Of a DNA stretch of 64,000 bases, positions 41,026 to 56,926 are shown one piece after another. The stretch comes from Spirochaetia bacterium. GTDB lineage: Bacteria; Spirochaetota; Spirochaetia; CADAEX01. A program made the translations under genes and the position numbers. The notes beneath the pieces are model-generated. The model searched no databases, was not told the origin of the DNA, and saw only the letters and a list, made by a program, of their open reading frames with translations. The stretch spans positions 96,001-160,000 of the forward strand of contig CAXXHA010000035.1 in the NCBI GenBank assembly GCA_963662265.2, in the 5' to 3' direction. Each line of letters begins with the position of its first letter. Position 1 is the stretch's first letter.

Positions 41026-41634
41026 TCAGATAATCCCCTTGATAAATGACAGAAGAACATCAAGAGCCCTTTCGTTGTTTCCCCCTTCCGGGATAATAAT
41101 ATCTGCCTTTGTTTTAAGAGGCTCAATAAACTCCTGATGCCCCGGCCTGACATATTCCATATACTGTTCAATGACAGAATCGAGAGTTCTTCCCCTTTCC
41201 TCAATATCTCTTTTAAGTCTTCTTATGAAGCGTATATCATCGGGAGTGTCTATAAATATTTTGAGGTCTATGAGATCAAGTATTTTCTTTTCGGAAAATA
41301 TCATTATTCCTTCAAATATTACCAGTTTTCTCGGTTCTATCCTCACTGTTTCCTCTGTTCTTCTGTGGTGGACAAAATCATACTGCGGCATATCAATGCC
41401 TTTGAAATTTTTTAATGCTTTTAAATGCTTTCTTATGAGATCAGAATCAAACGCATCCGGATGGTCGAAGTTGAAAGCTGTAATATTGCTGTTATTCATA
41501 TATTCTGCCGACTTGTAGTAATTATCCTGGGGGATGAATACAAAGTCTTCAACTATTTCTCTGATTTTATTTACTATTGTTGTTTTTCCGGAACCTGAGC
41601 CTCCGGTTATTCCTATTACAAGTGCTTTATCCAT
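41026..41634 (-). CDS. udk: Uridine kinase
   Basis: [31 protein letters not shown]. Confidence 0.95.
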
Positions 41635-41749
41635 AAAGTTATATTATGACATGAGCAGGGCAGTGTAAAGATTTTACAACCTGATCCATCAATAATATTG
41701 TTGCTGATGAACCAGGCCTGGTTTTGAATTGCGGGTCCTGTCAAAATGA

Positions 41750-43039
41750 TCAGTCTACACAGATCTGTATTTCATTACTGGAGAGTTTTTTTCCGAAAGC
41801 ATCTCCCGGAATTGTGAGTTTTACCATTTCTCCCGGCAGGAGGTTTTTTTTCTTTACTGTGTAAATATCCCTGTCACCTGATTTAACCGAAAGAACACTG
41901 TCTCTGAATACTGTATTTACTCTCATGAAGACATCAAAACCTTTGCCGCTTTCAGGAGTTTTAATTTTCTGCGGTACTGTATATGAAATTCCATTTCCGT
42001 TTATTATGTTAATAACGGGGGTTGCGAATACTTTGTCATTCCCCTGTGTCTCTGTTTCTTCCTTTCTCTTTTTGTCCAGTGCTTTAATCCCTGCATGAAA
42101 GCCTGCCTTTCTGCTTTCCTCTGTGACAAAATCTACAAGGTCATGAACATGGACAACATTTCCGCATGCGAATATTCCGCTTACAGATGTCTCCATTTGT
42201 TCATTGACAACAAGACCTCCAGTCCTCTGGTCAATTTCTATGCCTGCTTCTCTTGAAAGTTCATTTTCCGGTATGAGGCCGACAGAAAGAAGAAGAGTGT
42301 CGCAGTCAAACTCGATTTCTGTCCCTTGAACCGGTTTTCTGTTTTTATCAACTCTTGATACTGTTATTTTCTCGATTTTCTCTTTCCCGTGAATGTTTGT
42401 AACTGTGTGTCCCAGGAAAAGCGGAATTCCGTAATGATCCAGGCACTGTACAATATTTCTTGAAAGACCATTGGAATAAGGCATTACTTCAACAACCCCT
42501 TTTACATCCGCTCCTTCAAGGGCAAGCCGCCTGGCCATGATAAGACCGATATCGCCTGAACCGAGTATGAAAACTTTTTTACCCACCATATACCCTTCAA
42601 TGTTTATAAACCGCTGGGCTGTTCCTGCTGTAAATATCCCTGCAGGTCTTGCGCCGGGTATGGCAATGGCTCCCCGTGTTCTCTCCCTGCAGCCCATTGC
42701 GAGAATTATCGATTTTCCGTGAACAGTCTGCATCCCGGTACTGCTTCCCAGGACTAAAACACTCTTTGATTCAGTTATTTTAAGCACCATTGTATCAAGC
42801 ATGAATTCAATGCCGGCTTCCTCTGCCATGTTTATGAACCTCTGGGCATATTCAGGTCCTGTAAGTTCCTCTTTAAATACATGAAGACCGAACCCGTTAT
42901 GAATACACTGCTGAAGAATTCCTCCCGGTTCAACATCTCTTTCTATAATCAATATTTTTGTACAGCCTGTTTTTTTTGCTTCTATCGCTGCAGCAAGTCC
43001 TGCAGGTCCCCCTCCGATTACAATCACCTCATAAGTCAT
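41750..43039 (-). CDS. NAD(P)/FAD-dependent oxidoreductase, G3PDH partner subunit (paralogue 2)
   Basis: GGGPAG, GGILQQCIHNGFG, AMGCRER, GSGDIG, CGNVVHVHDLVD. Confidence 0.9.
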   Translation of the reverse strand: MTYEVIVIGGGPAGLAAAIEAKKTGCTKILIIERDVEPGGILQQCIHNGFGLHVFKEELTGPEYAQRFINMAEEAGIEFMLDTMVLKITESKSVLVLGSSTGMQTVHGKSIILAMGCRERTRGAIAIPGARPAGIFTAGTAQRFINIEGYMVGKKVFILGSGDIGLIMARRLALEGADVKGVVEVMPYSNGLSRNIVQCLDHYGIPLFLGHTVTNIHGKEKIEKITVSRVDKNRKPVQGTEIEFDCDTLLLSVGLIPENELSREAGIEIDQRTGGLVVNEQMETSVSGIFACGNVVHVHDLVDFVTEESRKAGFHAGIKALDKKRKEETETQGNDKVFATPVINIINGNGISYTVPQKIKTPESGKGFDVFMRVNTVFRDSVLSVKSGDRDIYTVKKKNLLPGEMVKLTIPGDAFGKKLSSNEIQICVD

Positions 43040-43056
43040 TTTTTCCCCCTGTTAAT

Positions 43057-43119
43057 AAAAAAAGCCGGAGGGTCCTCTTCTGTTCTGAAGAAAACACCTC
43101 CGGCTCTCGTCTCTCCGCC
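43057..43119 (-). promoter_or_regulatory. GlpP-type antiterminator element plus terminator, copy 1
   Basis: GGCGGAGAGACGAGAGCC then AGCCGGAG/CTCCGGCT stem and T7. Confidence 0.8.
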
Positions 43120-43245
43120 GGATATATCAATATTTATTTTGTTGTTTCATCCGGTATTCTTTTTTATACCGGTACTGTTTTGCTTATATTTAACAGTAGT
43201 TTTCTGTTGCAGATCTCTGATTCTGCATACCCAGCTGTATATATT

Positions 43246-43596
43246 TCACATGTTTCTTGTTACAACTACATTCACCCCTGTATCAAATACATTTTCAAGA
43301 ACCACATCTCCCATGGTGACAGGCGAAGTCACTTCAACCTTGTTGATCAGCTTCATGATTTCAAACTTATACTTTTCAGGTATAGCTTTGTCTGTTTTTA
43401 CCGGTACTACCTTATGGATGCCTCCCCTTATTTTTACAGTTGAGCAGATCATTCTTGTAGGATTTGTAAGTTCCTCTTTTGCGTATAGAATCCCTCTTTT
43501 GCACTTATTGCCGGTTATTACAGGTTCTTCGGGAGTTCCCTCGATTTTAAGCCTGCATCCCATGGGGCATACAATACAGATAAGCTCATTTTTCAT
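43246..43596 (-). CDS. DUF1667 small CxxC subunit
   Basis: CIVCPMGC...GNKCKRG...PVKT. Confidence 0.9.
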   Translation of the reverse strand: MKNELICIVCPMGCRLKIEGTPEEPVITGNKCKRGILYAKEELTNPTRMICSTVKIRGGIHKVVPVKTDKAIPEKYKFEIMKLINKVEVTSPVTMGDVVLENVFDTGVNVVVTRNM

Positions 43597-43597
43597 T

Positions 43598-44866
43598 TCA
43601 GCCTTCCTCCTCAGACACAAGATTTATACTAATAACCCCTGTTGTATTTTCAAATGTCTCTTTTTTTACTGTTATTTTAATCATTTCTCCGGGGGTAAGA
43701 TGTCTCTCCTTGAATCTGGCAAGTTCCCGTCTGTTGTTTTCAAGAATAATCAATCTGTCGTTATAGACACGGTCGACTCTCATGAATATATCAAGCTTAT
43801 CAGGCAGGTTTGAATATCTGAATCTGTGCGGAACTGCATATGTGAGTCCTCCCGATGCTTTGAAGTATATATAATCCCCATCCCTTTTAAATTTTCCTTT
43901 AACATAGCTTGAAGCGTTTTTTCCGGCCCTTCTGCTTTCTGCAGTTACGAAATCCACAAGATCATGGACATGGACAACATTGCCGCATGCAAAAATACCT
44001 TCAACAGATGTTTCCATGCTCTCGTTCACAACAGGTCCACCTGTTTTCCTGTCTAGTTCTATACCTGCCTGTTTTGAGAGTTCATTTTCAGGTATCAGCC
44101 CTACAGAAAGAAGAACTGTATCGCATTCATATTCTTTCTCAGTTCCCGGGATAACCTGTTTGCTCATGTCAGTCTCTGCAATTATTACGCTTTCAACCCT
44201 TTCCTTTCCTTTTATCTCAACAATGTTGTGGCTCAAGAGGAGGGGGATGTCGTAGTGGTCAAGGCACTGAACAACATTTCTCGTTAGTCCCTTTGGAAAT
44301 GAGCTTCGCGCAACAACAGCTTTTACCTCACCTCCTTCGAGAACAATCCGTCTCGCCATGATCATCCCGATATCTCCTGATCCCAGTATTACCACCTTTT
44401 TCCCGACCATATAGCCTTCAATATTTATATACCGCTGTGCAGTCCCTGCTGTAAAAACACCTGCCGGTCTTTCCCCCGGGATTGATATAGCCCCTCTTGT
44501 CCTCTCCCTGCATCCCATGGCAAGAACAATTGATTCAGCGCTTATTTCTTTTTTACCGTGAGTATTCATTACCACAATCTCTTTACTGCTGTTTATTGAA
44601 GTAACTATTGTGTCGAGGAGTATTTCGATTTCATCATTAGTCGCCATGTTGATGAATTTCTGTGCATATTCAGGCCCTGTAAGTTCCTCCCTGAATTCGA
44701 ATAATCCGAAACCGTTATGGATACACTGCTGGAGAATTCCCCCCGGCTCTATATCCCTTTCAATGATGAGCACTCTGTCAATGCCGCTTCCTTTTGCTTC
44801 TATTGCAGCAGCAAGTCCTGCCGGACCTCCGCCGATTACAACAATATCGTATTTTTCTTTTTTCAT
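43598..44866 (-). CDS. NAD(P)/FAD-dependent oxidoreductase, G3PDH partner subunit (paralogue 1)
   Basis: Same motifs as 41750..43039; closely spaced within the operon. Confidence 0.9.
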   Translation of the reverse strand: MKKEKYDIVVIGGGPAGLAAAIEAKGSGIDRVLIIERDIEPGGILQQCIHNGFGLFEFREELTGPEYAQKFINMATNDEIEILLDTIVTSINSSKEIVVMNTHGKKEISAESIVLAMGCRERTRGAISIPGERPAGVFTAGTAQRYINIEGYMVGKKVVILGSGDIGMIMARRIVLEGGEVKAVVARSSFPKGLTRNVVQCLDHYDIPLLLSHNIVEIKGKERVESVIIAETDMSKQVIPGTEKEYECDTVLLSVGLIPENELSKQAGIELDRKTGGPVVNESMETSVEGIFACGNVVHVHDLVDFVTAESRRAGKNASSYVKGKFKRDGDYIYFKASGGLTYAVPHRFRYSNLPDKLDIFMRVDRVYNDRLIILENNRRELARFKERHLTPGEMIKITVKKETFENTTGVISINLVSEEEG

Positions 44867-44882
44867 GGCAAACGCCTCTCTG

Positions 44883-46310
44883 CTATTTTGTCTTTCCGGT
44901 CAGTATATAGGAATTCTTCTTCTCGAGAACAATTTCCTCCCGCGGTGTGTTAAGCTCTCTTGCGAGTATTTCCTGAACTTTCGGGCCGCAGAATCCACCC
45001 TGGCATCTTCCCATGCCTGGACGGCACCTCCGTTTTACTCCATCAAGTGTTTTTGCTCCAACCGGCCTGTGTATTGCATCAAGTATATCCCCTTCTGTGA
45101 TATTTTCACATCTGCAAATTATCCTGCCGTATAAGGGATTCTCTTTAAGAAGTTTTTTCTGTTCAGATTCGCTCCTCTCAAGAAAGAGTTTTCTTTCAAT
45201 ATTCGGATTGAAATCCTTCTTCTTTTTCATTGCCAGTCCCGCTTCTTCGAGAAGTTCAAGCACATAACGGGCTATTGCAGGGGCTGCTGTCAGGCCGGGA
45301 GACTTGATTCCCGCTACATCGAAGAAATTCTCAGTACCGGGAGCTTTTTTTATGATAAAATCTCCTGTATCCGGTTCTGCCCTCATTCCGGCAAAAGTCC
45401 TTATGCTGTTTCTTGTTGTTATTTCCGGGATCAGTTTCTTTGCCCCGCTGCTTGCCTTATCGAGCAGTTCTGAAGTTGTTGAAACATCTTCTGGATCTTC
45501 GAGATCGTCTGAAGAAGGGCCGAGTATCAGGTTCCCGTGAACAGTCGGTGTCACAAGTGTTCCTTTTCCCATTTTATCAGGGCACGGGAAAATAACTGAA
45601 TTAACCATACACCCTTCACATTTATCAAGCAGGAAGTACTGTCCCCTTCTGGGCTTTATTTTGAAATCCTCTTCTGCCGCCATATTGTGTATTTTGTCTG
45701 CAAATACGCCGGCAGCATTTACAACATATTCAGCTTCAACAGAATCTGAATAGCTTTTTATTATGTAATGAGTATCTTTTTTTTCGATTGACGATACACT
45801 GAAGTTGAGCTTGAGTTCACATCCGTTCATTACAGCGTTTTCAATCAGGGAAATTGTCAGGAGCATCGGATCAATTATTCCTGCTGTTTCAGCGAGCAGG
45901 GCCCCTTTTGCTTCCGGGTTTATATGGGGTTCCCTTTTTTTCAGTTCCCCGGCAGAGAGAATTTTCATTCCCTTTATTTTATTGTTTAGACCTCTCTGAT
46001 AGAGTTTTTTAATATGATCAATCTGTTCATCGTCATATGCAACTACGAGAGAACCTATTCTTTTAAACGGTACATCAAGTTCACTGCAGAGCCTGTCAAA
46101 CATGGGATTCCCCTCGGAATTGAATCTGGCCATCAGGGTGTTTTCTTCCGGATCATACCCGGCATGAATTATTGCGGAATTAGCTTTTGATGTTCCACAT
46201 GAAACATCATTTTCCTTGTCTATAACTATTACCTTGAGATTGAACCGGGAAAGATCTCTTGCAATTGCTGCTCCTGTGACTCCTGCTCCTATGATTGCAA
46301 CATCATACAT
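44883..46310 (-). CDS. FAD-dependent glycerol-3-phosphate dehydrogenase-like subunit with a C-terminal BFD-type 2Fe-2S domain
   Basis: GAGVTG, TSKANSAIIHAG, SPGLTAAP, CRCE...GRCQGGFC. Confidence 0.85.
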   Translation of the reverse strand: MYDVAIIGAGVTGAAIARDLSRFNLKVIVIDKENDVSCGTSKANSAIIHAGYDPEENTLMARFNSEGNPMFDRLCSELDVPFKRIGSLVVAYDDEQIDHIKKLYQRGLNNKIKGMKILSAGELKKREPHINPEAKGALLAETAGIIDPMLLTISLIENAVMNGCELKLNFSVSSIEKKDTHYIIKSYSDSVEAEYVVNAAGVFADKIHNMAAEEDFKIKPRRGQYFLLDKCEGCMVNSVIFPCPDKMGKGTLVTPTVHGNLILGPSSDDLEDPEDVSTTSELLDKASSGAKKLIPEITTRNSIRTFAGMRAEPDTGDFIIKKAPGTENFFDVAGIKSPGLTAAPAIARYVLELLEEAGLAMKKKKDFNPNIERKLFLERSESEQKKLLKENPLYGRIICRCENITEGDILDAIHRPVGAKTLDGVKRRCRPGMGRCQGGFCGPKVQEILARELNTPREEIVLEKKNSYILTGKTK

Positions 46311-46387
46311 ATAATATCCTCCAGAAAGGTATGCCGGATTACGGCACTATAAAATAACTTTAAACCAATTGATAAATCAAAAAAAGC

Positions 46388-46453
46388 AAAAAAAAGCCAG
46401 ATAAAAAGACACCTGTCCCGGTATCGTTTTATCTGGCTCTCTTTTCTCCAGCC
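46388..46453 (-). promoter_or_regulatory. GlpP-type antiterminator element plus terminator, copy 2
   Basis: GGCTGGAGAAAAGAGAGCC then a 12-bp AGCCAGATAAAA/TTTTATCTGGCT stem and T8. Confidence 0.85.
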
Positions 46454-46570
46454 ATGAAAACTATCATGATTTGATTTATTATATTATACCTGTTTATTCT
46501 TGTCAAATATATGTTACTATTAGCTTTAAACTACTAATTTTGATTTGATCCGGGGATATTTGTTCTGACT

Positions 46571-47713
46571 ATGATAATAAACATACTGAAATGGACAGGT
46601 TTTATTTATGCTTTGCTGCTGCTTGCAAGCCATGTTGCTGTACTTGCAGGTCTTGCTGTTGTGTTTCGAAAAGAGAATAAAGTAAAGCGATTAAAAAAAG
46701 ACACAGTCAAACACAGTGTTTCTGTAGTAATACCTGCACGTGATGAAGAGGCTAATCTGCCCAGGCTGTTCGCATCTCTCGAAAAACAGACATACAGCGA
46801 TTTTGAAATTGTGCTTGTAGATGACAGGTCGGAAGATGATACATATAAGGTAATGAAAAAATTCCAGTCGATACATCCTGACAGGGTGAAAATTATCAGG
46901 AATGAAAAGACTTTCTACAAAAAAAATCCAAAACAGATGGTTCTTGATATCGGAGCAAAAAATGCTTCAGGTGATATTCTCCTTTTTACAGATGCAGACT
47001 GCCGTGTTCCGGAAACATGGGTCGAGAGTATGTCGCATCCTTATAATGACGAGAAGACAGGGCTTGTATTCGGATCTGTGACAACAGGAGGAGGAAAAGG
47101 TCTTCTTGCTAATTTTCAGCGTTTTGATCACCTTCTGAGGTACCATTATACAGCAGCCTGTGCCGGTCTTAAAAATCCGACCGGGGGCTTCGGGAATAAT
47201 CTTTCGATCAGGGCAAAGGCTTTGTCTGATATCGGGGGATTTTCTGATATTGAATTCAGCGTTACTGAAGATGCCCAGCTTATTGCACGTGTCCGTGATA
47301 CAGGTAAATGGGTTATTGAAGCCAGATCTTCCTGGGATTCTACAGTGTTTACAACACCTGTAACTTCGTGGAAAGAGCTCTCTGTCCAGGAGCTCCGCTG
47401 GAGTACAGGTGCAGTGCATGCTCCTGACTGGAAAGCTTTTGCCGGATATGGTTTTGTAATGTACCAGCTTGCAACTGGTGTTTTTGCATTTATTCCCGCA
47501 CTTCTCAATCCCTTTTATTTCCACTTTCTTCTTTCAGGAATTTTAAGCATGCTTGTTGTTTCAACAGCAGTAGGGATACACCTGGGTATGGACAGGAAAT
47601 TCTGGTTTTATCTTGTGCCATCCCTTATAGTTGCAGAATTCCTGTTTCCAACTATTGTTCTCCTTGCAACATTCAAGCCTGTGATAATCTGGAAAGGGGA
47701 GAAGGTCTGCTAG
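46571..47713 (+). CDS. GT2 membrane glycosyltransferase
   Basis: VIPARDEE, DDRSED, FTDAD, TED, QELRW; N- and C-terminal TM helices. Confidence 0.88.
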   Translation: MIINILKWTGFIYALLLLASHVAVLAGLAVVFRKENKVKRLKKDTVKHSVSVVIPARDEEANLPRLFASLEKQTYSDFEIVLVDDRSEDDTYKVMKKFQSIHPDRVKIIRNEKTFYKKNPKQMVLDIGAKNASGDILLFTDADCRVPETWVESMSHPYNDEKTGLVFGSVTTGGGKGLLANFQRFDHLLRYHYTAACAGLKNPTGGFGNNLSIRAKALSDIGGFSDIEFSVTEDAQLIARVRDTGKWVIEARSSWDSTVFTTPVTSWKELSVQELRWSTGAVHAPDWKAFAGYGFVMYQLATGVFAFIPALLNPFYFHFLLSGILSMLVVSTAVGIHLGMDRKFWFYLVPSLIVAEFLFPTIVLLATFKPVIIWKGEKVC

Positions 47714-47831
47714 TTTGAGAACCGGAAGGCCTTTTTTCTTATAAAAGAAAAATCCGGATAGAATCTGTTCTCTTGATTCCTGTGTGAATGTGCTTGTAAA
47801 AATGCTATAATTAAGTTGTTGGAGATTCTTT

Positions 47832-48464
47832 ATGAAAATTATTGATTTGACTCATCCGTTATCTTCAGATATGCCTGTCTATCCAGGCACAGACCAGCCT
47901 CAGTTTAATTCCGGATGTACTTTTGAAAAAGACGGTTTCAGGGAAAAAGAGATAACAATGTTTTCTCATACCGGGACCCATATAGATGCTCCTGCCCACA
48001 TGCTTGAAAAGGGAAAGACCCTGGATAAATTCGGTACTGATAAATTTATTGGAAAAGGTTTTCTGCTTGACTGCCGGGGCAAGCCTGAAATTGATATTAA
48101 TCTGATTAAGGAACATGAAAAAAACATAAGGAAGGCAGATTTTCTTATCATAAATACAGGATGGAGCAGTTACTGGGGAATGGATAAATATTTTTCTGGA
48201 TTTCCTGTCCTGACACAAAAAGCTGCAAAGCTTGTTGCTGACTGCAGTCTTAAGGGATTTGGCTTTGATGCTATTTCTGCTGACCCGGTATCAACAGAAA
48301 GCTATGAAATACATAAAATACTGATGGCTCGGGAGATGATTCTGATAGAGAACCTTTGCAATCTTGACAGTATTAAGCATGAAAAATTTGTTTTTTCCTG
48401 TTTCCCCCTCAATATACAGGATGCTGACGGATCTCCTGTAAGGGCGGTTGCTCTTGCGGAATAA
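47832..48464 (+). CDS. Cyclase/kynurenine formamidase-like metallohydrolase
   Basis: HTGTHIDAPAH, IENL, DGSPVRA. Confidence 0.9.
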   Translation: MKIIDLTHPLSSDMPVYPGTDQPQFNSGCTFEKDGFREKEITMFSHTGTHIDAPAHMLEKGKTLDKFGTDKFIGKGFLLDCRGKPEIDINLIKEHEKNIRKADFLIINTGWSSYWGMDKYFSGFPVLTQKAAKLVADCSLKGFGFDAISADPVSTESYEIHKILMAREMILIENLCNLDSIKHEKFVFSCFPLNIQDADGSPVRAVALAE

Positions 48465-48582
48465 GCAAAACAGGATATTGATTGTTTCATGATTATATAT
48501 GGAACTCCTTTTTAAACTGCTTTTTTTTAATGAAAAAGTATAAAAAACCGCTTGTAATATAAAAAGTAAATGGTTCAGTTTA

Positions 48583-49149
48583 TTACATATACCATGTGTC
48601 GTATCGTGTTGTTGAAACGCTGCAGGCGCCGGCGTTGAGTGCTGCCATTATATCTTCCCTGTCTGTTATAAGCCCTCCCGCTATTACAGGAGTTGAAGTT
48701 GAATCTGAAAACTGCTTTATAACTTTAGGCATCAGTCCCGGAAGTATTTCAATCGCATCCGGTTTGTAATCTTTAATAGCCTTGAAGCCGGATTCTATGG
48801 AAAGTGAATCAAGAATGAAAAATCTCTGAACTACAAAAATATTCCTTTCCCTTGCTGCTTTTACCAGTGTTGTCTTTGTTGTTATAATGCCGTCAGTGTT
48901 AGTTGCATCTGCAAGATAATCAAGTGCGTGTACAGATCTTGCAAGTCCATCAACAAGGTCAAAATGGACAAAAGCAAGCTTCCCGGAATCTTTAATTTTT
49001 TTTACCATATCCGGAATTGTTGTTATTGTGGAAGTCAGTATAAATATTATTTCATTATCTGTATTGACCGCCTCTTTGATATCTTCTTCTGTTTTTACAG
49101 CAGGTATAATAGGATTGTTTCTGAATATTTCTATAAATTTTCTGTTCAT
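48583..49149 (-). CDS. glpP: Glycerol-3-phosphate-responsive antiterminator
   Basis: FVHFDLVDGL, GIITTK, QRFFILDS, EILPG, PVIAGGLI, SVSTT. Confidence 0.93.
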   Translation of the reverse strand: MNRKFIEIFRNNPIIPAVKTEEDIKEAVNTDNEIIFILTSTITTIPDMVKKIKDSGKLAFVHFDLVDGLARSVHALDYLADATNTDGIITTKTTLVKAARERNIFVVQRFFILDSLSIESGFKAIKDYKPDAIEILPGLMPKVIKQFSDSTSTPVIAGGLITDREDIMAALNAGACSVSTTRYDTWYM

Positions 49150-49272
49150 ATTTTAATATTATTTATTATGAAAATGATGTCAAACCTTTAGTTGCTGAAA
49201 TAACGATAAAAAATAATCAAAAAACATTTGACAGATCAGAAAGGCGCATGTTTAAATATTATAGCAATACGA

Positions 49273-49340
49273 GGCAGAGAGTAAGAGAGCCGTAGAGTAT
49301 GTCAGATAGGGATATCTGTATATTCTACGGCTCTTTTTTT
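49273..49340 (+). promoter_or_regulatory. GlpP-type antiterminator element plus terminator, copy 3
   Basis: GGCAGAGAGTAAGAGAGCC then GAGCCGTAGAGTAT/ATATTCTACGGCTC stem and T7; TTGACA at 49228. Confidence 0.85.
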
Positions 49341-49461
49341 GATAAATATTTGTTGAGTTTTTAGAGTTTTAATGAAAAATTAAAAAATTCTTACGATAAC
49401 TTAATTTGGGTATATAATGTATTTATGTAAAAATACATTTACAAATCAAAAGGGGGATTTA

Positions 49462-50550
49462 ATGAAACGGTTATTTTTAATTGTTATGTGTCTCTTCATT
49501 CTTGCTTCCGGTGTCTTTGCCGGCGGAAAAAAGGAAGCAGCTGAAGAAGAAAACAAAGTTCTCAGAGTTCTCTCATGGTCAGGTTATATTCTTCCTGAAC
49601 AGGCTGAGCAGTTTAAAGAGGAAACAGGAATCACACTTGAAATTACTCATTCAAGTAATGAGGAAATGATTTCTAAACTCAGAGCTACAAGAGGCGGCGG
49701 ATATGATCTTGCACAGCCTTCACAGGACAGAATCTCATCAATGGTTCAGCAGTACAAGCTGTATCAGCCTATTGATTATTCACAGATCAATGAAGATCAG
49801 ATTGAGCCAAGTATGCTTAAAGCTGTTAAGGCAAATACACTTGTAGACGGAAAGTCATATGCTGTTCCTCATGTATTCGGAACTTCAGGCCTTATTGTTA
49901 ACAGCGAAAAAGCTCCTGATGTTAAAGACTACAAAGATCTTCTTGATCCCAAATACAAGGGAAGAGTTGCATACAGAATGAAAAGACCTACAATTCTTGC
50001 CATGGGTTTTTCACTCGGTTATGATCCTTTTGCTCTTTTTAGTGACAAAGAAGCTTACCAGAAATACCTTGATGATGTAGAAGCAAAACTCATAGAAGGT
50101 AAAGAAGTAGTTAAAAACTACTGGGAAAACGGAGATGCTCTTCTTGAATCAATGAGATCAGGTGAAGTATGGGCAGCAATGGGCTGGGAACAGCAGGCAT
50201 GGAAACTCTATAAGGAAAATCCTGCAATTGACTATGTAGCTCCAGCAAGCGGTTCAATGCAGTGGATTGATACTTTTGCTCTTCCTGCAAAATCAGAAAA
50301 TGTTGCAGGTGCTTATAAACTTATAAACTTCCTTCTTGATCCTGAGCAGGCTGCTGCTTTTACAAATGCTGAAAACTATGGTACAGCATCAAAAGATGCA
50401 GCCAAGTACCTTTCTCCTGAAGCTGCAGCTAACTTTGACAGGTGTTTTACTCCGGAAGTTATGGCTAACATGAATAGTTATCCTCCTGTTCCTCCAGGAC
50501 TTGAAGAAATGGAAGGTAAAGCTATGGATAGAATCAGGGCTGCTAAATAA
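49462..50550 (+). CDS. PotD/PotF-like ABC substrate-binding protein
   Basis: Signal peptide; SWSGY, SNEEMISKL, YDLAQPS, WIDTFALP. Confidence 0.88.
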   Translation: MKRLFLIVMCLFILASGVFAGGKKEAAEEENKVLRVLSWSGYILPEQAEQFKEETGITLEITHSSNEEMISKLRATRGGGYDLAQPSQDRISSMVQQYKLYQPIDYSQINEDQIEPSMLKAVKANTLVDGKSYAVPHVFGTSGLIVNSEKAPDVKDYKDLLDPKYKGRVAYRMKRPTILAMGFSLGYDPFALFSDKEAYQKYLDDVEAKLIEGKEVVKNYWENGDALLESMRSGEVWAAMGWEQQAWKLYKENPAIDYVAPASGSMQWIDTFALPAKSENVAGAYKLINFLLDPEQAAAFTNAENYGTASKDAAKYLSPEAAANFDRCFTPEVMANMNSYPPVPPGLEEMEGKAMDRIRAAK

Positions 50551-50604
50551 GTAAAAAACTTTTCTGACATAGTGCAGGGCATCTGCACCATATCAACTTA
50601 ATAA

Positions 50605-50676
50605 GGCAGAGAATATGAGAGCCGGATATTGAGGATGCTGAGTTTGTTTCAGGCACCCCTGTGTCCGGTTTTTTTT
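50605..50676 (+). promoter_or_regulatory. GlpP-type antiterminator element plus terminator, copy 4
   Basis: GGCAGAGAATATGAGAGCC then AGCCGGATAT/GTGTCCGGTT stem and T-run. Confidence 0.8.
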
Positions 50677-51254
50677 CTGTGTGCAGGGAATACTACATTG
50701 TGATTTTATTCGCTGTAAATTACAGATGTCTGTACCTGTTTTGCTGTTTTCAGGCAGTTTAATCTGTTAAAGATATCTGTTAAAGAAGCATTTAAATAAT
50801 GCTGTTTAAGATGAAGATTAAAAGTTATAATATTTAAGTAATAAAGCATTATTTTTATATATAATTTTAATCAGCAACACTGCTTCCGGCAGTAGACTGG
50901 TACAGCTGATCATAAGGTTTCTGTGCAGTATTATTGCATAAGCTTTATGAAAAAAGTACAGGGTTGCTGGTCTGTAGGGTGTGGATTTTCATGGCAGGTT
51001 TAATTCCATCTAACCTCTACAGGATAATAAGTTTCCAAAAGGTGCATAGTTCATATTTTGTGCATAGCGCCTTCTGGGCCGTAAACCTGCCGCGCGAATA
51101 AAAACGAAGGAATGGACAGCAGGGAAGTTTGTGATATTTCATTTCCTTATACGGCTTTTTAATGAGGGAAATATCCGGTTGATATTCTTACAGGGTAAAA
51201 ACTGCCAGCAGATCTTTACCTGTACTGTTCAATTTTGAATGAAGGTGGTAACAA

Positions 51255-52361
51255 ATGCAGATTGATTTGTCTGTGAAAGAGGTGCAGAAACGATTCGGAC
51301 AGTTTACAGCAGTGGATAACGTCTCTTTCGATGTGGAGGATGGTAAATTCTTTTCAATTCTGGGTCCTTCAGGATGCGGAAAAACAACTCTTCTTAGAAT
51401 GATTGCCGGTTTTTACGAACCGTCAGCAGGAAAAATAGAAATTCGCGGCCAGGATATGGCCAATGTTGAACCGAATAAAAGGCCTGTAAATCTTGTATTT
51501 CAACATCTTGCACTTTTTCCGATGATGGATGTCAAGGAAAATATAGCATTCGGTCTGAAACGACGGGGGGAAAAAGGCCCCGGAGTTTATAAAAAAGTAA
51601 ATAATCTGCTGGAAAGAGTAGGGCTTCCTGACCAGGGCAACAAGAGGATAAATCAGCTTTCAGGAGGTCAGAAACAGAGAGTTGCTATTGCAAGGTGTCT
51701 TATTCTTGAACCTGCAGTACTTCTACTGGATGAGCCTCTCGGAGCACTGGACCTTAAACTTAGAGAACATATGAAAGTTGAACTTAAAAAACTCCAGGTT
51801 GAGGTTGGTACAACTTTCGTTTATATCACCCATGACCAGTCGGAAGCTCTTGTTATGAGTGACAAGGTTGCAGTAATGAACCAGGGGAAATTCGAACAGG
51901 TAGATACCCCTCAGAATCTCTACGGTAAACCTGCTTCTTCGTTTGTTGCCCAGTTTGTAGGCGATAATAACCAGTTTATCGGAAAGCTTTCGAAGAATGA
52001 GAAAGGGCAGTTCTTTGTTGTTACAGATGACAATAATAAATATTTCATAGACTCTTCATGTGATGTAAATGAAAATGACAGGGTTGAAATGTATATAAGA
52101 CCTGAAGCTATGATAATCAATCCATCTTCAGATAAGGAGCTTAACAAGATTAAAGCTGATGTAAAAGCAATTCTCTTTGACGGCGGAAACAGCCGTCTTC
52201 TTGTAAATCCTCTTGGAGGCTCAAAGGATATGATTGTTTCACTTCCTCAGAACAGGCAGTTTGATCATATAAAATCAGGCGACAGTGTTGAAATCGGATG
52301 GGATTCCGCTTCTGCAGCATGTTTTAAGGAGTCAGGAGTAAAAACCTATGATGAACTCTAA
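51255..52361 (+). CDS. PotA-like ABC ATP-binding protein
   Basis: GPSGCGKT, LSGGQKQR, LLLDEPLGALD, C-terminal TOBE region. Confidence 0.93.
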   Translation: MQIDLSVKEVQKRFGQFTAVDNVSFDVEDGKFFSILGPSGCGKTTLLRMIAGFYEPSAGKIEIRGQDMANVEPNKRPVNLVFQHLALFPMMDVKENIAFGLKRRGEKGPGVYKKVNNLLERVGLPDQGNKRINQLSGGQKQRVAIARCLILEPAVLLLDEPLGALDLKLREHMKVELKKLQVEVGTTFVYITHDQSEALVMSDKVAVMNQGKFEQVDTPQNLYGKPASSFVAQFVGDNNQFIGKLSKNEKGQFFVVTDDNNKYFIDSSCDVNENDRVEMYIRPEAMIINPSSDKELNKIKADVKAILFDGGNSRLLVNPLGGSKDMIVSLPQNRQFDHIKSGDSVEIGWDSASAACFKESGVKTYDEL

Positions 52362-53217
52362 GAAAACAAAAATCAGATGGGGATTTATAATGTTTTTTAC
52401 TCCGGTGGCGCTCTGGCTTGGATTATTAATCATTGTTCCCCATCTTGATCTTTTAAGGATGTCTTTTGTAGGTTCTGATTATCTTGGTGAATCAGGATTT
52501 ACATTGAATCATTACAAGAGCTTTTTTACAGAGCCGATATACTGGCTTACATTTGTCAGGACAGCCATGTATTCTATCATTGTAACTGCAATTGTGCTTA
52601 TTATATCGCTGCCTGTCTCTTTTTATGTAACAAAGATTGCCAATTTCAAGGTTCAGGGTTTTCTGATGGTCCTCCTGCTCCTCCCTTTCTGGGTAAGTGA
52701 GCTTATAAGGGTTTACGGTTGGATGATCCTCCTCAGGGAAAGCGGCGTTATTAATAAATTCATGCTTGCCCTCGGGCTTTGGGATAAGCCTATTGAAATG
52801 CTTTATAACGATACAGTTATGATTATGGGGCTTGTATACACAACAATACTTTTCATGGCAGTCCCTGTAATCGGTGTAATGGAAGGTCTTGATGACTCAT
52901 ATATTGAGGCTGCATATGATCTTGGAGCAAAGAAAATAACAATCTGGAGAAAGATTATAATACCTCACTGCATGCCTGGAATTATGTCGGGAAGTATCAT
53001 GGTATTCATGCTTGTGCTTGGAAGTTATCTGACTCCGAACCTCATGGGAGGTAAGAACTCTCTCTGGTTTACACAGCAGATTTACAACCAGTTTATCCTT
53101 TATTTTAACTGGAACCAGGGATCAGCATTCGGATTTATGCTCCTTTTTATGTCTTCAATAATTATCTGGGCAGCTCTCAAATTAAGTGGTCAGCAGCTGA
53201 GTAAGGTGGTGAAATAG
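52348..53217 (+). CDS. PotB-like ABC permease
   Basis: LPFWVSELIRVYGW, IEAAYDLGA. Confidence 0.92.
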   Translation: MMNSKKTKIRWGFIMFFTPVALWLGLLIIVPHLDLLRMSFVGSDYLGESGFTLNHYKSFFTEPIYWLTFVRTAMYSIIVTAIVLIISLPVSFYVTKIANFKVQGFLMVLLLLPFWVSELIRVYGWMILLRESGVINKFMLALGLWDKPIEMLYNDTVMIMGLVYTTILFMAVPVIGVMEGLDDSYIEAAYDLGAKKITIWRKIIIPHCMPGIMSGSIMVFMLVLGSYLTPNLMGGKNSLWFTQQIYNQFILYFNWNQGSAFGFMLLFMSSIIIWAALKLSGQQLSKVVK

Positions 53218-53218
53218 T

Positions 53219-54076
53219 ATGATTAGAACATTACCAAGCAGCAGACTGTATAAAAACAGTTTTCATATTTTTATAATTATTTATTTTGTGGTCCTGTTTG
53301 CACCGCTTCTTGTTACATGTGTGCTTGCATTCAACGATTCAATGTTTCCGTCACTTCCATGGAACGGTTTTACTCTTGACTGGTTTTTCAGTGACGGTCC
53401 GGAAAAGATAGGTATTTTTCATGATAATACAAACCTGAGAAGTATATTTGTATCATTCAAGGTTGCAATTGCAGTTTCTATTCTTTCAACAATAGTAGGA
53501 ACATGCGCGGCATTTCTGTTTGAGCAGGAAGATTTCAGATTCAAGAATGCTCTTTATTTTCTTATGATAGCACCGCTTGTAATTCCCGGTGTTATTCTTG
53601 GTATATCAATTCTTGTATTTACAAACAACTTCGGCCTTTTTCTTGAAGAAACTTTCGGTCTTGATGTTGAGTTTCTTATGCCGGGATACTGGCTGGTTGT
53701 TTTAGGACAGTTTTCATTTATCACAACAATGGTAGCTCTTGTGGTTTCCGCAAGGCTCAAGAAATTTGACAGGACTCTTGAAGAGGCAGCATATAATCTT
53801 GGAGCCAACAGGCTTGAAGTTATATGGTTTATAACTCTTAAATACCTGAGGCCTTCAATCATTGGCGGGGCTGCTCTCGCATTCCTGATGTCGTTTGAAA
53901 ATTTCAATACGACACTGTTTCTTACTGGATCAGAATCCACTCTTCCCATTACCCTGTATCTTCAGGTAAGGGACGGTTCGACTCCTGTAATAAACGCGAT
54001 TTCATTCCTGCTTATTGTTACAACATCGATATTTGCTGTAATAAACCTTTATGCTTCTTCAAAGAACAAGGAGTAG
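53219..54076 (+). CDS. PotC-like ABC permease
   Basis: GFTLDW, LEEAAYNLGA, TLPI, PVINAIS. Confidence 0.92.
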   Translation: MIRTLPSSRLYKNSFHIFIIIYFVVLFAPLLVTCVLAFNDSMFPSLPWNGFTLDWFFSDGPEKIGIFHDNTNLRSIFVSFKVAIAVSILSTIVGTCAAFLFEQEDFRFKNALYFLMIAPLVIPGVILGISILVFTNNFGLFLEETFGLDVEFLMPGYWLVVLGQFSFITTMVALVVSARLKKFDRTLEEAAYNLGANRLEVIWFITLKYLRPSIIGGAALAFLMSFENFNTTLFLTGSESTLPITLYLQVRDGSTPVINAISFLLIVTTSIFAVINLYASSKNKE

Positions 54077-54270
54077 ACCGGAATTTTTTAAACGCTTCTG
54101 TTCCTGCCTGGGTAGAGCCCGGAAATCAGCAGTAATGGAAGCAGAAGGATTAAGATTATTCGCAGGGCGGGTATGATCCCTTATCAGGGGGATTCCTGAA
54201 CTGCTCTGTAAAGATTTTGTCAGGTATTGTTAAGGGTGATAGGCCTGCAACACAAAAAATCCTTACAGAA

Positions 54271-54305
54271 CCATAACCGCGAAGCTTGCGGCGGGGTTGT
54301 TGATT
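54271..54305. repeat. Short dispersed repeat, copy 3 of 3
   Basis: CCATAACCGCGAAGCTTGCGGCGGGGTTGTTGATT. Confidence 0.6.
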
Positions 54306-54341
54306 CCTGTATGTTTTGATAAACTTACAGGAAATTATTAA

Positions 54342-54405
54342 GGCTGAGATTAAGAGAGCCGGGCACAGAATGGTACTTAGGGATACCTGTGTCCGGCTTT
54401 TTTTT
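54342..54405 (+). promoter_or_regulatory. GlpP-type antiterminator element plus terminator, copy 5
   Basis: GGCTGAGATTAAGAGAGCC then AGCCGGGCACAG/CTGTGTCCGGCT stem and T8. Confidence 0.85.
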
Positions 54406-54418
54406 AGGGATGGTGAAA

Positions 54419-55645
54419 ATGGATAACAAAATTGGTGAATTTTTTGAAACTTTGCGAAGCGGAATTTCTGCTCTTAAGAATCATGAATCTAAAGAGCTTT
54501 TTCTTCTTCATCATAATGACTCTGACGGACTGACTTCCGGGGCTATTCTTTTGAAAGCTTTCGAGAGGGAAGGGTATGATGTTAAAAGGTTTTCCCTGGA
54601 AAAACCGTATCCGGATGTTCTGAAAAAGCTTTTTGATGAAAACAGCGGAAAAATAATTGTCTTTGCAGATTTTGCAGGAAAAATAGCTCCCATGCTTTCA
54701 GAATTCAACAGGGGAAAAAATCTTGTTCTTGTTCTGGACCATCACAGGGCAGAACCTGTTTTGAATGATAATACAGTACTTAACCTTGATCCTGATCTTT
54801 TCGGACTCAAGGGAGACAGGGATATTTCCGCTTCTGTGGTATGTTATCTGTTTGCCAGAGAACTGAACAGCATGAATGAAGATCTTGTTCATATTGCCGC
54901 ATTCGGCGGAATCGCAGATTTTTATTATCGTGATGAGGATGTTCATTCTTTCAACAGGGAATGTGTTGAAGATGCATGTGCAATCGGATTAATGAGGATT
55001 GAGTACAGAGACGGCAAAGAGCGGTTTATTATACGCCTGGGGGACAGGGAAGTTGATGTTGTGGAATTCTACCCTCTTCTCGATACACTCGGCGGAGTCG
55101 GATTTTATGACAGGGGGCCTGAGAAGGGGATTGATCTGCTTCTAAACGGTCTTGAGGATAGACATGTGGAAGAAATCAATAAACTGATGTCTGTCAAGGA
55201 AAAGATATTTGAAAAAGAAATAAGCAGGATGATGAAAAAAGACTACCATGAAACTGATGACATAATCTGGTTTGATGTTGAAGACAGGTTTGCTCCCATG
55301 GGAGTTAAAATGATCGGGGTTTTCTGCGAGGAAATTGTTGAAGCAGAGTACATAGATCAGAATAAATATCTTGCAGGTTTTCAGAGAATCCCTGACACAG
55401 TTCCCGGATTCGGCGAACTTGAAATGGGACAGACAAAAGTTTCAATGAGAACTTCTGCAGTTCTTTCAAAGAGGATCCTGGAAAAGGAAATTCCCGGGCT
55501 TAATGATTTTCTTCCGGAAGCAACTGTCAACCTCGGCGGTTTTGCAGATGCATGCCACAGTATTGCTGCTGCAACTACAATAGATATCGGCATGGAAGAA
55601 AAGCTGATGGATGAAACACAGAGAACATTAAACACGAAGAAATAA
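54419..55645 (+). CDS. DHH-family phosphoesterase
   Basis: HHNDSDG, FADF, LDHH, GGIAD, C-terminal ACHSIAAA (DHHA1 GGHxxAA variant); start ATG 54419 or 54410. Confidence 0.8.
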   Translation: MDNKIGEFFETLRSGISALKNHESKELFLLHHNDSDGLTSGAILLKAFEREGYDVKRFSLEKPYPDVLKKLFDENSGKIIVFADFAGKIAPMLSEFNRGKNLVLVLDHHRAEPVLNDNTVLNLDPDLFGLKGDRDISASVVCYLFARELNSMNEDLVHIAAFGGIADFYYRDEDVHSFNRECVEDACAIGLMRIEYRDGKERFIIRLGDREVDVVEFYPLLDTLGGVGFYDRGPEKGIDLLLNGLEDRHVEEINKLMSVKEKIFEKEISRMMKKDYHETDDIIWFDVEDRFAPMGVKMIGVFCEEIVEAEYIDQNKYLAGFQRIPDTVPGFGELEMGQTKVSMRTSAVLSKRILEKEIPGLNDFLPEATVNLGGFADACHSIAAATTIDIGMEEKLMDETQRTLNTKK

Positions 55646-55680
55646 TTCCAAAACTTTATTTTGGGCATTCTTTCTTCGTG

Positions 55681-55868
55681 TAGCGACAGAGACTTTTCGC
55701 AAGAAAAGTGCTCGATAGCGTTTAATGTACGAATAATTCAGAGACTTCTCCGCAGGAGAAGTGCTCGAACGAAAGAGACTTTTCCTATGGAGAAGTGTTC
55801 GAAAAATGTCAAAAAAGGTTTTGACATAAGCGGCAGGGGCTTCCTGAAAGGAAGTACTCAAAAGCGAA
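55681..55868. repeat. Cluster of four REP-like hairpins (same family as 2444-2590)
   Basis: TAGCGACAGAGACTTTTCGCAAGAAAAGTGCTCGATAGCG and three variants. Confidence 0.85.
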
Positions 55869-55954
55869 CTGATAGCGATATTAAATTGAAATTGATTCGG
55901 GAACTTTGTTATTAGAAGTACCGTAATTATTACTGTTAACGACAGGAGGATAAA

Positions 55955-56926
55955 ATGGGTAAAGGAAGCGCATTTGGAAAAAACATTCTGATAGGGGATC
56001 AGTTTGTACTTAACGGAGTACCGGCAATTGTATCAGCATTGCCGTATAAAACAGAAACAATTGTTGAAAGAGATGAATCTGTAGACGGATTTGTTGTTGA
56101 GGACAACAGGGTAGAAGTTCCCGGATATAAGAAGAAAAAAGAAGCTTCTTGCAGAAAATCATACGAAATGATGATCGAAGCTATGAGTATTGATCTCAAG
56201 AAGAATCCTATGAGAATAAAAGTTGGCGGTGATCTTCTTGCAGGAAGCGGAGTAGGAGCAAGCGGTGCTATAAGCGTTTCTTTCGGTAAGGCATGCAACG
56301 ATGAATTCAATCTTGGCTATGATGTCCTTGAAGAAAACAGAATCGGCTGGGTTGGAGAGCATGCATATCACGGTATTCCAAGCGGTGTAGATAATACTGC
56401 TTCTACTTTCGGCGGACTCATGATGTATATGATCAGGGACGGTAAGAAAATGTATGAAAGAATTGTTCCTGCCAAACCTCTTTATGTTGTACTTGCAAAC
56501 AGCGGAATAACCTACAACACAGCTCTTCTTGATGATCATATTGACGGTCTTATTGAAAATAATCCGGGCAAATTCTATACAAGTCTTAATAAAGTTACTT
56601 CACAGGTTTATGAAATGAAGAAAGCAATTGAAACAGGTGATCTTCAGGCAGTGGGCGATATTATGGTTGAAAACCATAATATCCTTATTGATATGGACCT
56701 CAGTGCTGACAGGCTTATTGAACTCTGTGACAGGGCAATAAAGATGGGTGCATACGGTGCAAAACTCACAGGCGGCGGAAGAGGGGGGTACATGGTGTCT
56801 CTCGTTGAAAGCCCTGAAATGCAGGATAAGATTGCATCAGATTTTGAAAAGGATGATATTCCTGTGATCAAGGCGCAGCTGGGTCTTGGCGCTATAGATG
56901 ATGCTGATTTCAGGCTTCTTGTATAG
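55955..56926 (+). CDS. GHMP kinase, mevalonate-kinase-like
   Basis: GKNILIGDQFV, GSGVGASGA, HGIPSGVDN, GAKLTGGGRGG. Confidence 0.8.
   Translation: MGKGSAFGKNILIGDQFVLNGVPAIVSALPYKTETIVERDESVDGFVVEDNRVEVPGYKKKKEASCRKSYEMMIEAMSIDLKKNPMRIKVGGDLLAGSGVGASGAISVSFGKACNDEFNLGYDVLEENRIGWVGEHAYHGIPSGVDNTASTFGGLMMYMIRDGKKMYERIVPAKPLYVVLANSGITYNTALLDDHIDGLIENNPGKFYTSLNKVTSQVYEMKKAIETGDLQAVGDIMVENHNILIDMDLSADRLIELCDRAIKMGAYGAKLTGGGRGGYMVSLVESPEMQDKIASDFEKDDIPVIKAQLGLGAIDDADFRLLV

Follow-up and report, generated by a model that had tools for sequence, protein, structure and literature searches.

A double-GAGA RNA element repeated around glpP as a putative GlpP-responsive transcription switch in a spirochaete

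This study deals with a 64-kb stretch of DNA from a Spirochaetia bacterium (contig C35:96001-160000 of the 3.77-Mb assembly G000; hereafter the window), in which the motif GGC-N1-2-GAG(A)-N3-4-GAGAGCC, fused to a strong intrinsic terminator, is present in five copies around glpP (48583-49149), the gene encoding a glycerol-3-phosphate (G3P) responsive antiterminator. These five copies very probably act as GlpP-responsive antiterminator-terminator switches and represent the RNA target of this GlpP protein. Antitermination by GlpP has been known since the 1990s. According to two publications, GlpP together with G3P overrides the leader terminators of glpD, glpFK and glpTQ in Bacillus subtilis (PMC9604022, PMC10573289), and each of these three leaders is described as containing "a GlpP binding site" and a terminator (PMC9604022).

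By default, the nascent RNA of each copy would fold into the intrinsic terminator, whose 5' arm begins with GAGAGCC, and transcription would stop. G3P-bound GlpP is proposed to bind the purine-rich loop with its two GAG(A) half-sites and to clamp the weak helix of 3-5 bp which the 5' GGC can form with the GCC of GAGAGCC. The base of the terminator stem beside the U-run would then be withheld, and RNA polymerase would read through. Binding by GlpP, its dependence on G3P, the reading of the half-sites by a GlpP oligomer and a multiplicative effect of serial copies are parts of this model that we infer.

The five copies are given below with the folding energy of the terminator and the score obtained with R1, a covariance model derived from 19 copies in G000 and four relatives (alignment A2).

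43055..43127, minus strand: element E, internal switch, motif at 43119; GGCGGAGAGACGAGAGCC; -34.2 kcal/mol; 52.4 bits
46387..46461, minus strand: element A, leader switch, motif at 46453; GGCUGGAGAAAAGAGAGCC followed by hairpin and U-run; -34.4 kcal/mol; 72.4 bits
49265..49342, plus strand: element S, leader switch, motif at 49273; GGCAGAGAGUAAGAGAGCC followed by terminator; -36.3 kcal/mol; 64.3 bits
50597..50678, plus strand: element B, internal switch, motif at 50605; GGCAGAGAAUAUGAGAGCC followed by terminator; -33.9 kcal/mol; 63 bits
54334..54407, plus strand: element C, internal switch, motif at 54342; GGCUGAGAUUAAGAGAGCC followed by terminator; -28.5 kcal/mol; 69.2 bits

Structure of the element and of its terminator

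An earlier note on this DNA had listed the five motif strings, and all of them were verified in the sequence at the positions and on the strands that it gave. The gene map also bears out its statement that every copy is intergenic and runs in the same sense as the next gene downstream. The pattern GAGA-N2-6-GAGAGCC occurs five times in the window as compared with 0.09 expected occurrences, and none of 100 shuffled sequences reached this number. Each copy leads straight into a long hairpin followed by 7-8 U. The terminators fold with -28.5 to -36.3 kcal/mol (z-scores of -4.5 to -7.9), a stability that was not attained by any of 200 shuffled sequences. The note had further claimed that the interior of the stem differs between copies but stays paired. 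Consistent with this, 92.5% of the cells of the terminator stem in alignment A2 are paired versus 79.5% after shuffling, and both sides have changed in 8 of 14 pairs.

The element itself consists of a single helix of 3-5 bp that closes a loop of 12-14 nucleotides (nt) with two GAG(A) repeats spaced by 3-4 nt; in element E the closing helix can be extended to CCGGC/GCCGG. The presence of two repeats suggests two equivalent protein contacts. Since the closing helix and the terminator base use the same GCC, with which the strong portion of the terminator stem begins, the two structures are mutually exclusive. This part of the earlier proposal thus stands, with the qualification that formation of the mini-helix removes only three G-C pairs and the A/G-U pairs from the terminator. 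The mini-hairpin alone contributes -0.9 to -2.3 kcal/mol, and a fold in which it is imposed is 10-15 kcal/mol less favourable than the terminator fold. These values argue for termination as the default state and for a protein being needed to hold the alternative structure.

Pairing of the 5' GGC with the 3' GCC, as postulated in the note, is supported by covariation in other taxa, where the nucleotides flanking the loop pair with different letters. In alignment A4, which comprises R1 matches from such taxa, the three core pairs are formed in 42/43, 39/41 and 42/42 cells, and compensatory changes include C-G to U-A (three times) and G-C to C-G (once). Several records of PLSDB are Bacilli chromosomes or large replicons with glpP-glpF-glpK-glpD, and we compared glpF and glpD leaders from Staphylococcus aureus, Cytobacillus and Bacillus sp. 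N5-665. All of these contain GAGA-N3-5-GAGA, the second GAGA being located at the 5' terminator foot, and in every one of them the loop-flanking nucleotides pair, with letters that differ: GGU/ACC in glpD of Cytobacillus and Bacillus sp. (also seen in Paenibacillus), GUG/CAC in glpF of the same two, and UAGAA/UUCUA and GAAUC/GAUUU in S. aureus. An Enterococcus element located before an MFS gene has GUUACU/AGUAAC, a UGC/GCA closing helix is present in further taxa, and a more distant spirochaete GlpP locus shows UUGCUG/CAGCAA and GCUCA/UGAGC. Among 130 GAG...GAGA sites with a terminator, which were loosely chosen and surely include many false ones, 65 have at least three Watson-Crick closing pairs; with shuffled flanks the mean number was 24.0 and the maximum 35 (500 shuffles), and with flanks from further upstream the number was 21. 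A second model with the mini-helix entered as pairs (R2) recognized some Bacilli leaders only weakly (E 0.02-0.2) and was not used for counts.

A stretch common to all six Bacilli glpF and glpD leaders compared, AAGUUAAUA, lies a few nt 5' of the first GAGA (approximate positions: L117 8925-8935 and 11495-11505; L118 8607-8616 and 11091-11100; L119 8617-8626 and 11138-11147). The spirochaete and clostridial copies lack this stretch, which could mark the 5' end of the transcript or provide an extra contact.

Occurrence of the element and its association with glpP

As the earlier note had suggested, the covariance model was used to search the whole genome. At E<1e-8, R1 recognized only the five copies of the cluster (52-72 bits) in the 3.77 Mb. 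A sixth match (37.9 bits, E 3e-5) is located on contig C14 before a second glpP operon; it was followed by the antisense strand of copy A (31.6 bits) and by four matches at E 0.23-0.42, the next sense match having an E value of 0.23. The five sites described by the note have to be supplemented by this further, divergent copy elsewhere in the genome. The loose sequence pattern by itself is not discriminating: it has nine matches in the genome, as many as in the reversed control, and the four matches outside the cluster possess neither the 5' GGC nor a terminator. A generic scan for any 3-bp closing helix around a GNG...GNGA loop overlapping with a strong terminator returned nine distinct sites, six of which are the element copies; the remaining ones (C15:14799, C35:5121 and C8:47697) are GNG variants without GAGA. 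The motif is therefore not scattered over the genome; scattering regardless of gene function is what the note had named as fatal to its proposal.

The sixth element (GGCAUGUGUAUAAGUGAGCC plus terminator, following a TTGACA promoter) and its operon extend over C14:19425-23051 of G000 (locus L022 6560-10255). The operon encodes a PotD-like substrate-binding protein (SBP), a glycerophosphodiester phosphodiesterase (GDPD), a HAD hydrolase and a second GlpP protein, GlpP2 (PF04309 1.1e-60), which is 66% identical to the first. In GGCAUGUGUAUAAGUGAGCC, GUG replaces GAG in both half-sites. The GUG form in front of the GlpP2 operon may represent a paralogue-specific RNA code. No GlpP2 orthologue with more than 70% identity was found among 300 sampled Spirochaetia.

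The distribution of the element across genomes and its gene context both point to a functional link with GlpP. A GlpP protein above the Pfam cut-off is encoded in five of 41 related genomes, each of which has 5-7 R1 matches. Of the 36 relatives without GlpP, 34 lack an R1 match, one (G008) has a partial match restricted to the terminator and one (G003) has a full element. The latter (G003:C1:13943-14016, locus L130; 42.4 bits) precedes the orthologous SBP-ATPase operon. No GlpP was found in the G003 assembly, which is 95% complete and consists of 270 contigs; the site is an orphan unless glpP has been lost to a gap in the assembly. On a broader scale, 20 of 301 sampled Spirochaetia genomes contain GlpP homologues.

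We also applied R1 to a cross-phylum set of 80 GlpP neighbourhoods (1.31 Mb) from Clostridia, Fusobacteria and others. It produced 47 matches at E<=0.1 in 28 loci, one being an antisense duplicate, and all 46 sense matches lie directly before glycerol/G3P-type genes or glpP. The first open reading frame (ORF) downstream encodes a GlpA-like protein with DAO and BFD domains in 25 cases, MIP/GlpF in eight and GlpP in four; the others are MFS, SBP and ABC (ATP-binding cassette) ATPase genes (two each), one FGGY/GlpK gene and two DHH-like ORFs, which are orthologues without a Pfam match at 1e-10. Most strong matches are located less than 10 kb from glpP, and the off-locus matches inspected in relatives, at five of the seven loci fetched, precede ABC importer operons. 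The genes presumed to be regulated in G000 share a metabolic theme, with the GlpA-like oxidoreductase set at one locus and the importer, GDPD and HAD genes at the second. The view that the elements belong to glpP is thus borne out by co-occurrence across the 41 genomes as well as by gene context. As a side observation, PF04309-like proteins are also encoded in PLSDB records of Escherichia coli (about 41% identical), Klebsiella, Cupriavidus and Burkholderia (H39-H41, H78-H82).

Several observations weigh against the proposed function or its generality. Formation of the mini-helix would still leave a hairpin of -14.8 to -24.4 kcal/mol, which in four copies lies 2-5 nt from the U-run (the value for copy A is not meaningful); GlpP would thus have to mask a larger part of the arm, unless opening of the stem base is sufficient by itself. 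GGC and GCC are invariant in the spirochaete copies, so that covariation comes from other taxa only, and the two outer candidate pairs of A4 are mostly unpaired. R1 has no match at E<=0.1 in 52 of the 80 GlpP loci because it is tuned to the GGC/GCC type, and on the Enterococcus and Paenibacillus loci it gave chance-level matches only. Given that the neighbourhoods were chosen for holding glpP, part of the gene-context association is built in. The glycerol kinase gene glpK of G000 (C16:47312-48787, locus L124; TIGR01311, 728 bits) is preceded by neither an element nor a leader terminator, and glycerol phosphorylation therefore seems to be outside this GlpP circuit. Finally, the sole RNA data set among 10 sequencing runs with matches is a metatranscriptome that contains 0.06 of the sequence words. 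In region 41500-56000 it is represented by a small number of short, identical contigs, which fall within the SBP, permease and DHH genes and not at the terminators, and such contigs cannot show ends or levels.

Could the copies be something other than GlpP targets? If they were ordinary bidirectional terminators, the purine tract would be an A-tract pairing with the U-run, without any regulatory role. In minimum-energy folds GAGAG does pair with the U-run, and the reverse strand of copy A is a weak R1 match (31.6 bits). However, an A-tract explains neither the invariant upstream GGC, the first GAG(A) and their fixed spacing nor the covarying closing helix, the limit of six sites in 3.77 Mb and the placement of terminators immediately behind promoters, ahead of the first gene, which makes this explanation very improbable. 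An equally low probability is assigned to a riboswitch that senses G3P or another metabolite directly, independently of GlpP. Riboswitch-like location, overlap with a terminator and the single metabolite theme of the regulated genes would fit such a device, but the conserved part is limited to a loop of 12-14 nt and 3-5 bp, which to our knowledge is too small for any known type of metabolite pocket; moreover, strong matches are confined to genomes with glpP, mostly within 10 kb of the gene, and there is no match to an Rfam riboswitch. Only marginally better are the prospects for another RNA-binding regulator, with an incidental link to glpP. PyrR, whose binding loop also contains AGAGAG, or CsrA acting via GGA motifs come to mind, as GGA or AGAG is present in the purine-rich loops of some copies (e.g., GGCUGGAGAAAAGAGAGCC). 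Yet GGA is missing from three of the five copies, no Rfam model of a protein-binding leader matches at E<=1, and the genes downstream are of the glycerol/G3P type in 46 of 46 cases rather than pyr genes, with the element co-occurring with glpP. GlpP accordingly remains our strongly favoured candidate for the protein that reads the element.

Serial arrangement of the elements in two gene runs

The copies are distributed over two gene runs that flank glpP. On the minus strand the order is promoter, element A, the GlpA-like gene, a Pyr_redox_2 gene, the DUF1667 gene, element E and a second Pyr_redox_2 gene; on the plus strand it is a promoter-like site, element S, the SBP gene, element B, the ATPase gene, two permease genes, element C and the gene of a DHH-family protein.

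46478..46506, minus strand: promoter of the minus run, TTGACA-17-TATAAT (consensus match 12/12; kept in 5/5 orthologous loci)
44883..46310, minus strand: GlpA-like FAD-dependent glycerol-3-phosphate oxidoreductase, DAO plus BFD [2Fe-2S] (PF01266 1.2e-73; PF04324 1.3e-14)
43598..44866, minus strand: Pyr_redox_2 NAD(P)/FAD oxidoreductase, partner of the GlpA-like enzyme (PF07992 1.2e-38)
43246..43620, minus strand: DUF1667 protein (PF07892 2.1e-32)
41750..43039, minus strand: second Pyr_redox_2 oxidoreductase, paralogue of the product of 43598-44866 (57% identical)
48583..49149, minus strand: glpP, glycerol-3-phosphate responsive antiterminator (PF04309 3.5e-64; related to PDB 3kts and 1vkf)
49228..49257, plus strand: promoter-like site of the plus run, TTGACA-18-TTAAAT (read by eye; not listed by the consensus scan)
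49417..50550, plus strand: PotD-like ABC SBP (PF13416 1.1e-33)
51255..52361, plus strand: ABC transporter ATPase (PF00005 6.2e-38)
52348..53217 and 53219..54076, plus strand: two ABC permeases (PF00528 5.7e-07 and 1.8e-11)
54419..55645, plus strand: DHH-family protein with RecJ-like N-terminal domain (PF01368 9.3e-07; PDB 5x4h 2.9e-28 over residues 8-195)

The GlpA-like protein also matches the type 2 G3P oxidase model NF033460 (1.3e-108), under the cut-off of that model. The SBP probably starts at the in-frame ATG at 49462. The product of the last gene of the plus run had been taken for an esterase, which is at odds with its PF01368 and PDB 5x4h matches; orthologues of this DHH-family protein, 81% identical in G002 and 65% in G006, likewise follow element C. 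The minus run is peculiar in that it comprises two Pyr_redox_2 paralogues of which the second is placed behind an attenuator of its own (element E), and the same layout is found in G001.

Copies A and S are leaders situated just after conserved promoters, while E, B and C lie between the genes of the runs. When the 80 nt that precede each orthologous copy were aligned across five genomes, a conserved TTGACA and -10 box became apparent in all five loci of both the A class and the S class, the latter being the SBP leaders. By contrast, no conserved TTGACA/TATAAT pair is present within these 80 nt in any orthologous locus of the E, B and C classes, where the upstream sequence consists of the ends of the preceding genes. 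The claim that three of the copies are internal to gene runs is thereby corroborated. Spacing points in the same direction: element B begins 47 nt past the SBP stop codon in the window, and in G001, which belongs to the same genus, E follows the DUF1667 stop codon after about 35 nt and B the SBP stop codon after about 50 nt, with the ATPase gene starting 195 nt past B and element C located 109 nt past the permease stop codon. Clostridial loci, too, have elements at 50-175 nt from the upstream gene (e.g., L090). The series S-B-C is retained in G000, G001, G002, G006 and G009, which represent two genera, and element B occupies the same place in the four relatives.

The alternative model holds that each copy heads a transcription unit with a promoter of its own, in which case the five switches would work in parallel and there would be no multiplicative checkpoint. 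Precedents exist: glpFK, glpD and glpTQ of B. subtilis each have their own promoter and leader, and in the Bacilli compared here the glpD leader comes directly after glpK and shares AAGUUAAUA with the glpF leader at the 5' end. A promoter-like site matching 9 of 12 consensus positions at 54150-54177, 165 nt upstream of copy C, speaks for this model and against ours, the 258 nt of non-coding DNA before C (109 nt in G001) leave room for weak promoters, and the 575 nt after B (195 nt in G001) could harbour a promoter for the ATPase gene. Against separate promoters stand the missing TTGACA/TATAAT pairs before E, B and C, which contrast with 5/5 for A and S, and the short distances of E and B from the upstream stop codons in G001 (about 35 and 50 nt), where candidate hexamers would put the transcription start inside the element. 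Furthermore, a promoter after B would release the transporter genes from GlpP, and yet B has been kept in five genomes of two genera. We regard separate promoters as a possibility to be taken seriously though not a probable one. Because conserved promoters are lacking before the internal copies, the gaps are short and the series is kept, the intra-operon arrangement is rated the likelier of the two, and the internal copies are probably arranged in series on one transcript.

If the switches do lie between genes of the same transcription units, the distal genes, i.e., those for the second oxidoreductase, for the ATPase and permeases and for the DHH protein, would need two or three successive read-through events. 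A steep and ordered response, as envisaged by the earlier note, would follow arithmetically provided that read-through probabilities multiply.

Two further features were noted around element B. Directly 5' of it (50564-50596, GTGCAG..CTGCAC) lies a stable hairpin without a U-run, which is found in both genera with differing sequences (L021 11766-11795; L019 and L020 upstream of their element B). It may insulate the folding of the element or stabilize the mRNA of the binding protein. Downstream, 426 nt of non-coding DNA (50685-51110) without an ORF of at least 60 amino acids separate B from the ATPase gene. This stretch is absent from G001, with its B-ATPase gap of 195 nt, and it is not a repeat element since it is single-copy in the genome.

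Novelty, significance and comparison with known systems

The window has no Rfam match at the gathering score, and around the six elements only three chance-level matches to eukaryotic miRNA and snoRNA models were obtained (E 0.44-0.78). Glatz reportedly mapped the GlpP site in 1996 and 1998, and the GlpP RNA element may have been described in some form in papers of the 1990s. In the open full-text literature we found no consensus of a GlpP RNA target; older papers behind paywalls and one supplementary figure were outside this search. The words GlpP and glycerol are absent from a 2025 review of RNA-binding antiterminators (PMC12591593), and Naville and Gautheret (2010) mention neither glp nor glycerol. 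What our study adds is a definition of the element by comparison across taxa, its multiplication within operons of a spirochaete lineage and the possible existence of a paralogue pair whose second member reads GUG.

Taken together, it is tempting to speculate that the double-GAGA mini-hairpin is the general GlpP element in Bacilli, Clostridia, Fusobacteria and Spirochaetes, that its half-sites are read by a GlpP oligomer, and that its multiplication within operons creates a hierarchical, switch-like induction in the order SBP, transporter and DHH enzyme, with GlpP2 reading GUG such that two insulated GlpP circuits coexist. As a whole this combined picture is tentative, and we consider it unlikely that all of its parts will hold. 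A compact model, in which a loop with two GAGA half-sites is closed by a covarying helix of 3-6 bp that borrows the terminator foot, would permit annotation of GlpP regulons in at least four phyla. It would give direction to mutagenesis and to structural studies of RNA recognition by a TIM-barrel-like protein, and it would account for the "portable" 5' untranslated regions, inducible by glycerol, that are used in B. subtilis engineering (PMC9604022). With the intra-operon copies, nature provides a setting in which to ask if a response becomes sharper or ordered when attenuators are stacked.

The closest relatives of the switches described here are the GlpP-controlled leaders of B. subtilis, with which they have in common a PF04309 regulator, a default terminator that is overridden by a protein and the theme of the genes controlled. 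They differ in the spirochaete host, in the operon-internal placement of three copies, none of which has its own conserved promoter, and in their targets: glpFK, glpD and glpTQ in B. subtilis versus an oxidoreductase set of the GlpA type and, with a DHH protein, a PotABCD-like importer in G000. The leaders of S. aureus, Cytobacillus and Bacillus sp. likewise carry the double-GAGA core over the 5' terminator foot; however, the closing helix of the spirochaete copies is GGC/GCC, as in Clostridia, instead of GGU/ACC or GUG/CAC, and the AAGUUAAUA box at the 5' side is missing.

The serial layout that we propose has a counterpart in the pyr operon of B. subtilis, where PyrR acts on three successive attenuators located in the leader, between pyrR and pyrP, and between pyrP and pyrB. 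In both cases a single RNA-binding protein would govern several terminator switches in one operon, but PyrR promotes termination via an anti-antiterminator whereas GlpP prevents it, and the two proteins differ in fold and effector. The RAT/CAT systems of BglG, SacY and LicT resemble the present one in that a weak, protein-held hairpin overlaps the 5' arm of the terminator and several targets are served per regulator. The RAT stem, with about 29 nt and internal loops, is nevertheless distinct from a helix of 3-5 bp closing a loop of 12-14 nt with two GAGA repeats. Neither CAT nor PRD domains were detected among 15 neighbouring proteins scanned, and the adjacent regulator has PF04309 only. Finally, the ANTAR proteins EutV, AmiR and NasR also work through protein-stabilized antiterminators, and for the eut cluster several sites are described (PMC3369931, PMC8934654, PMC12591593). 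In contrast to the two hexaloop hairpins of the ANTAR targets, the element found here is one small hairpin that holds two repeats in a single loop, and the protein proposed to read it belongs to another family.

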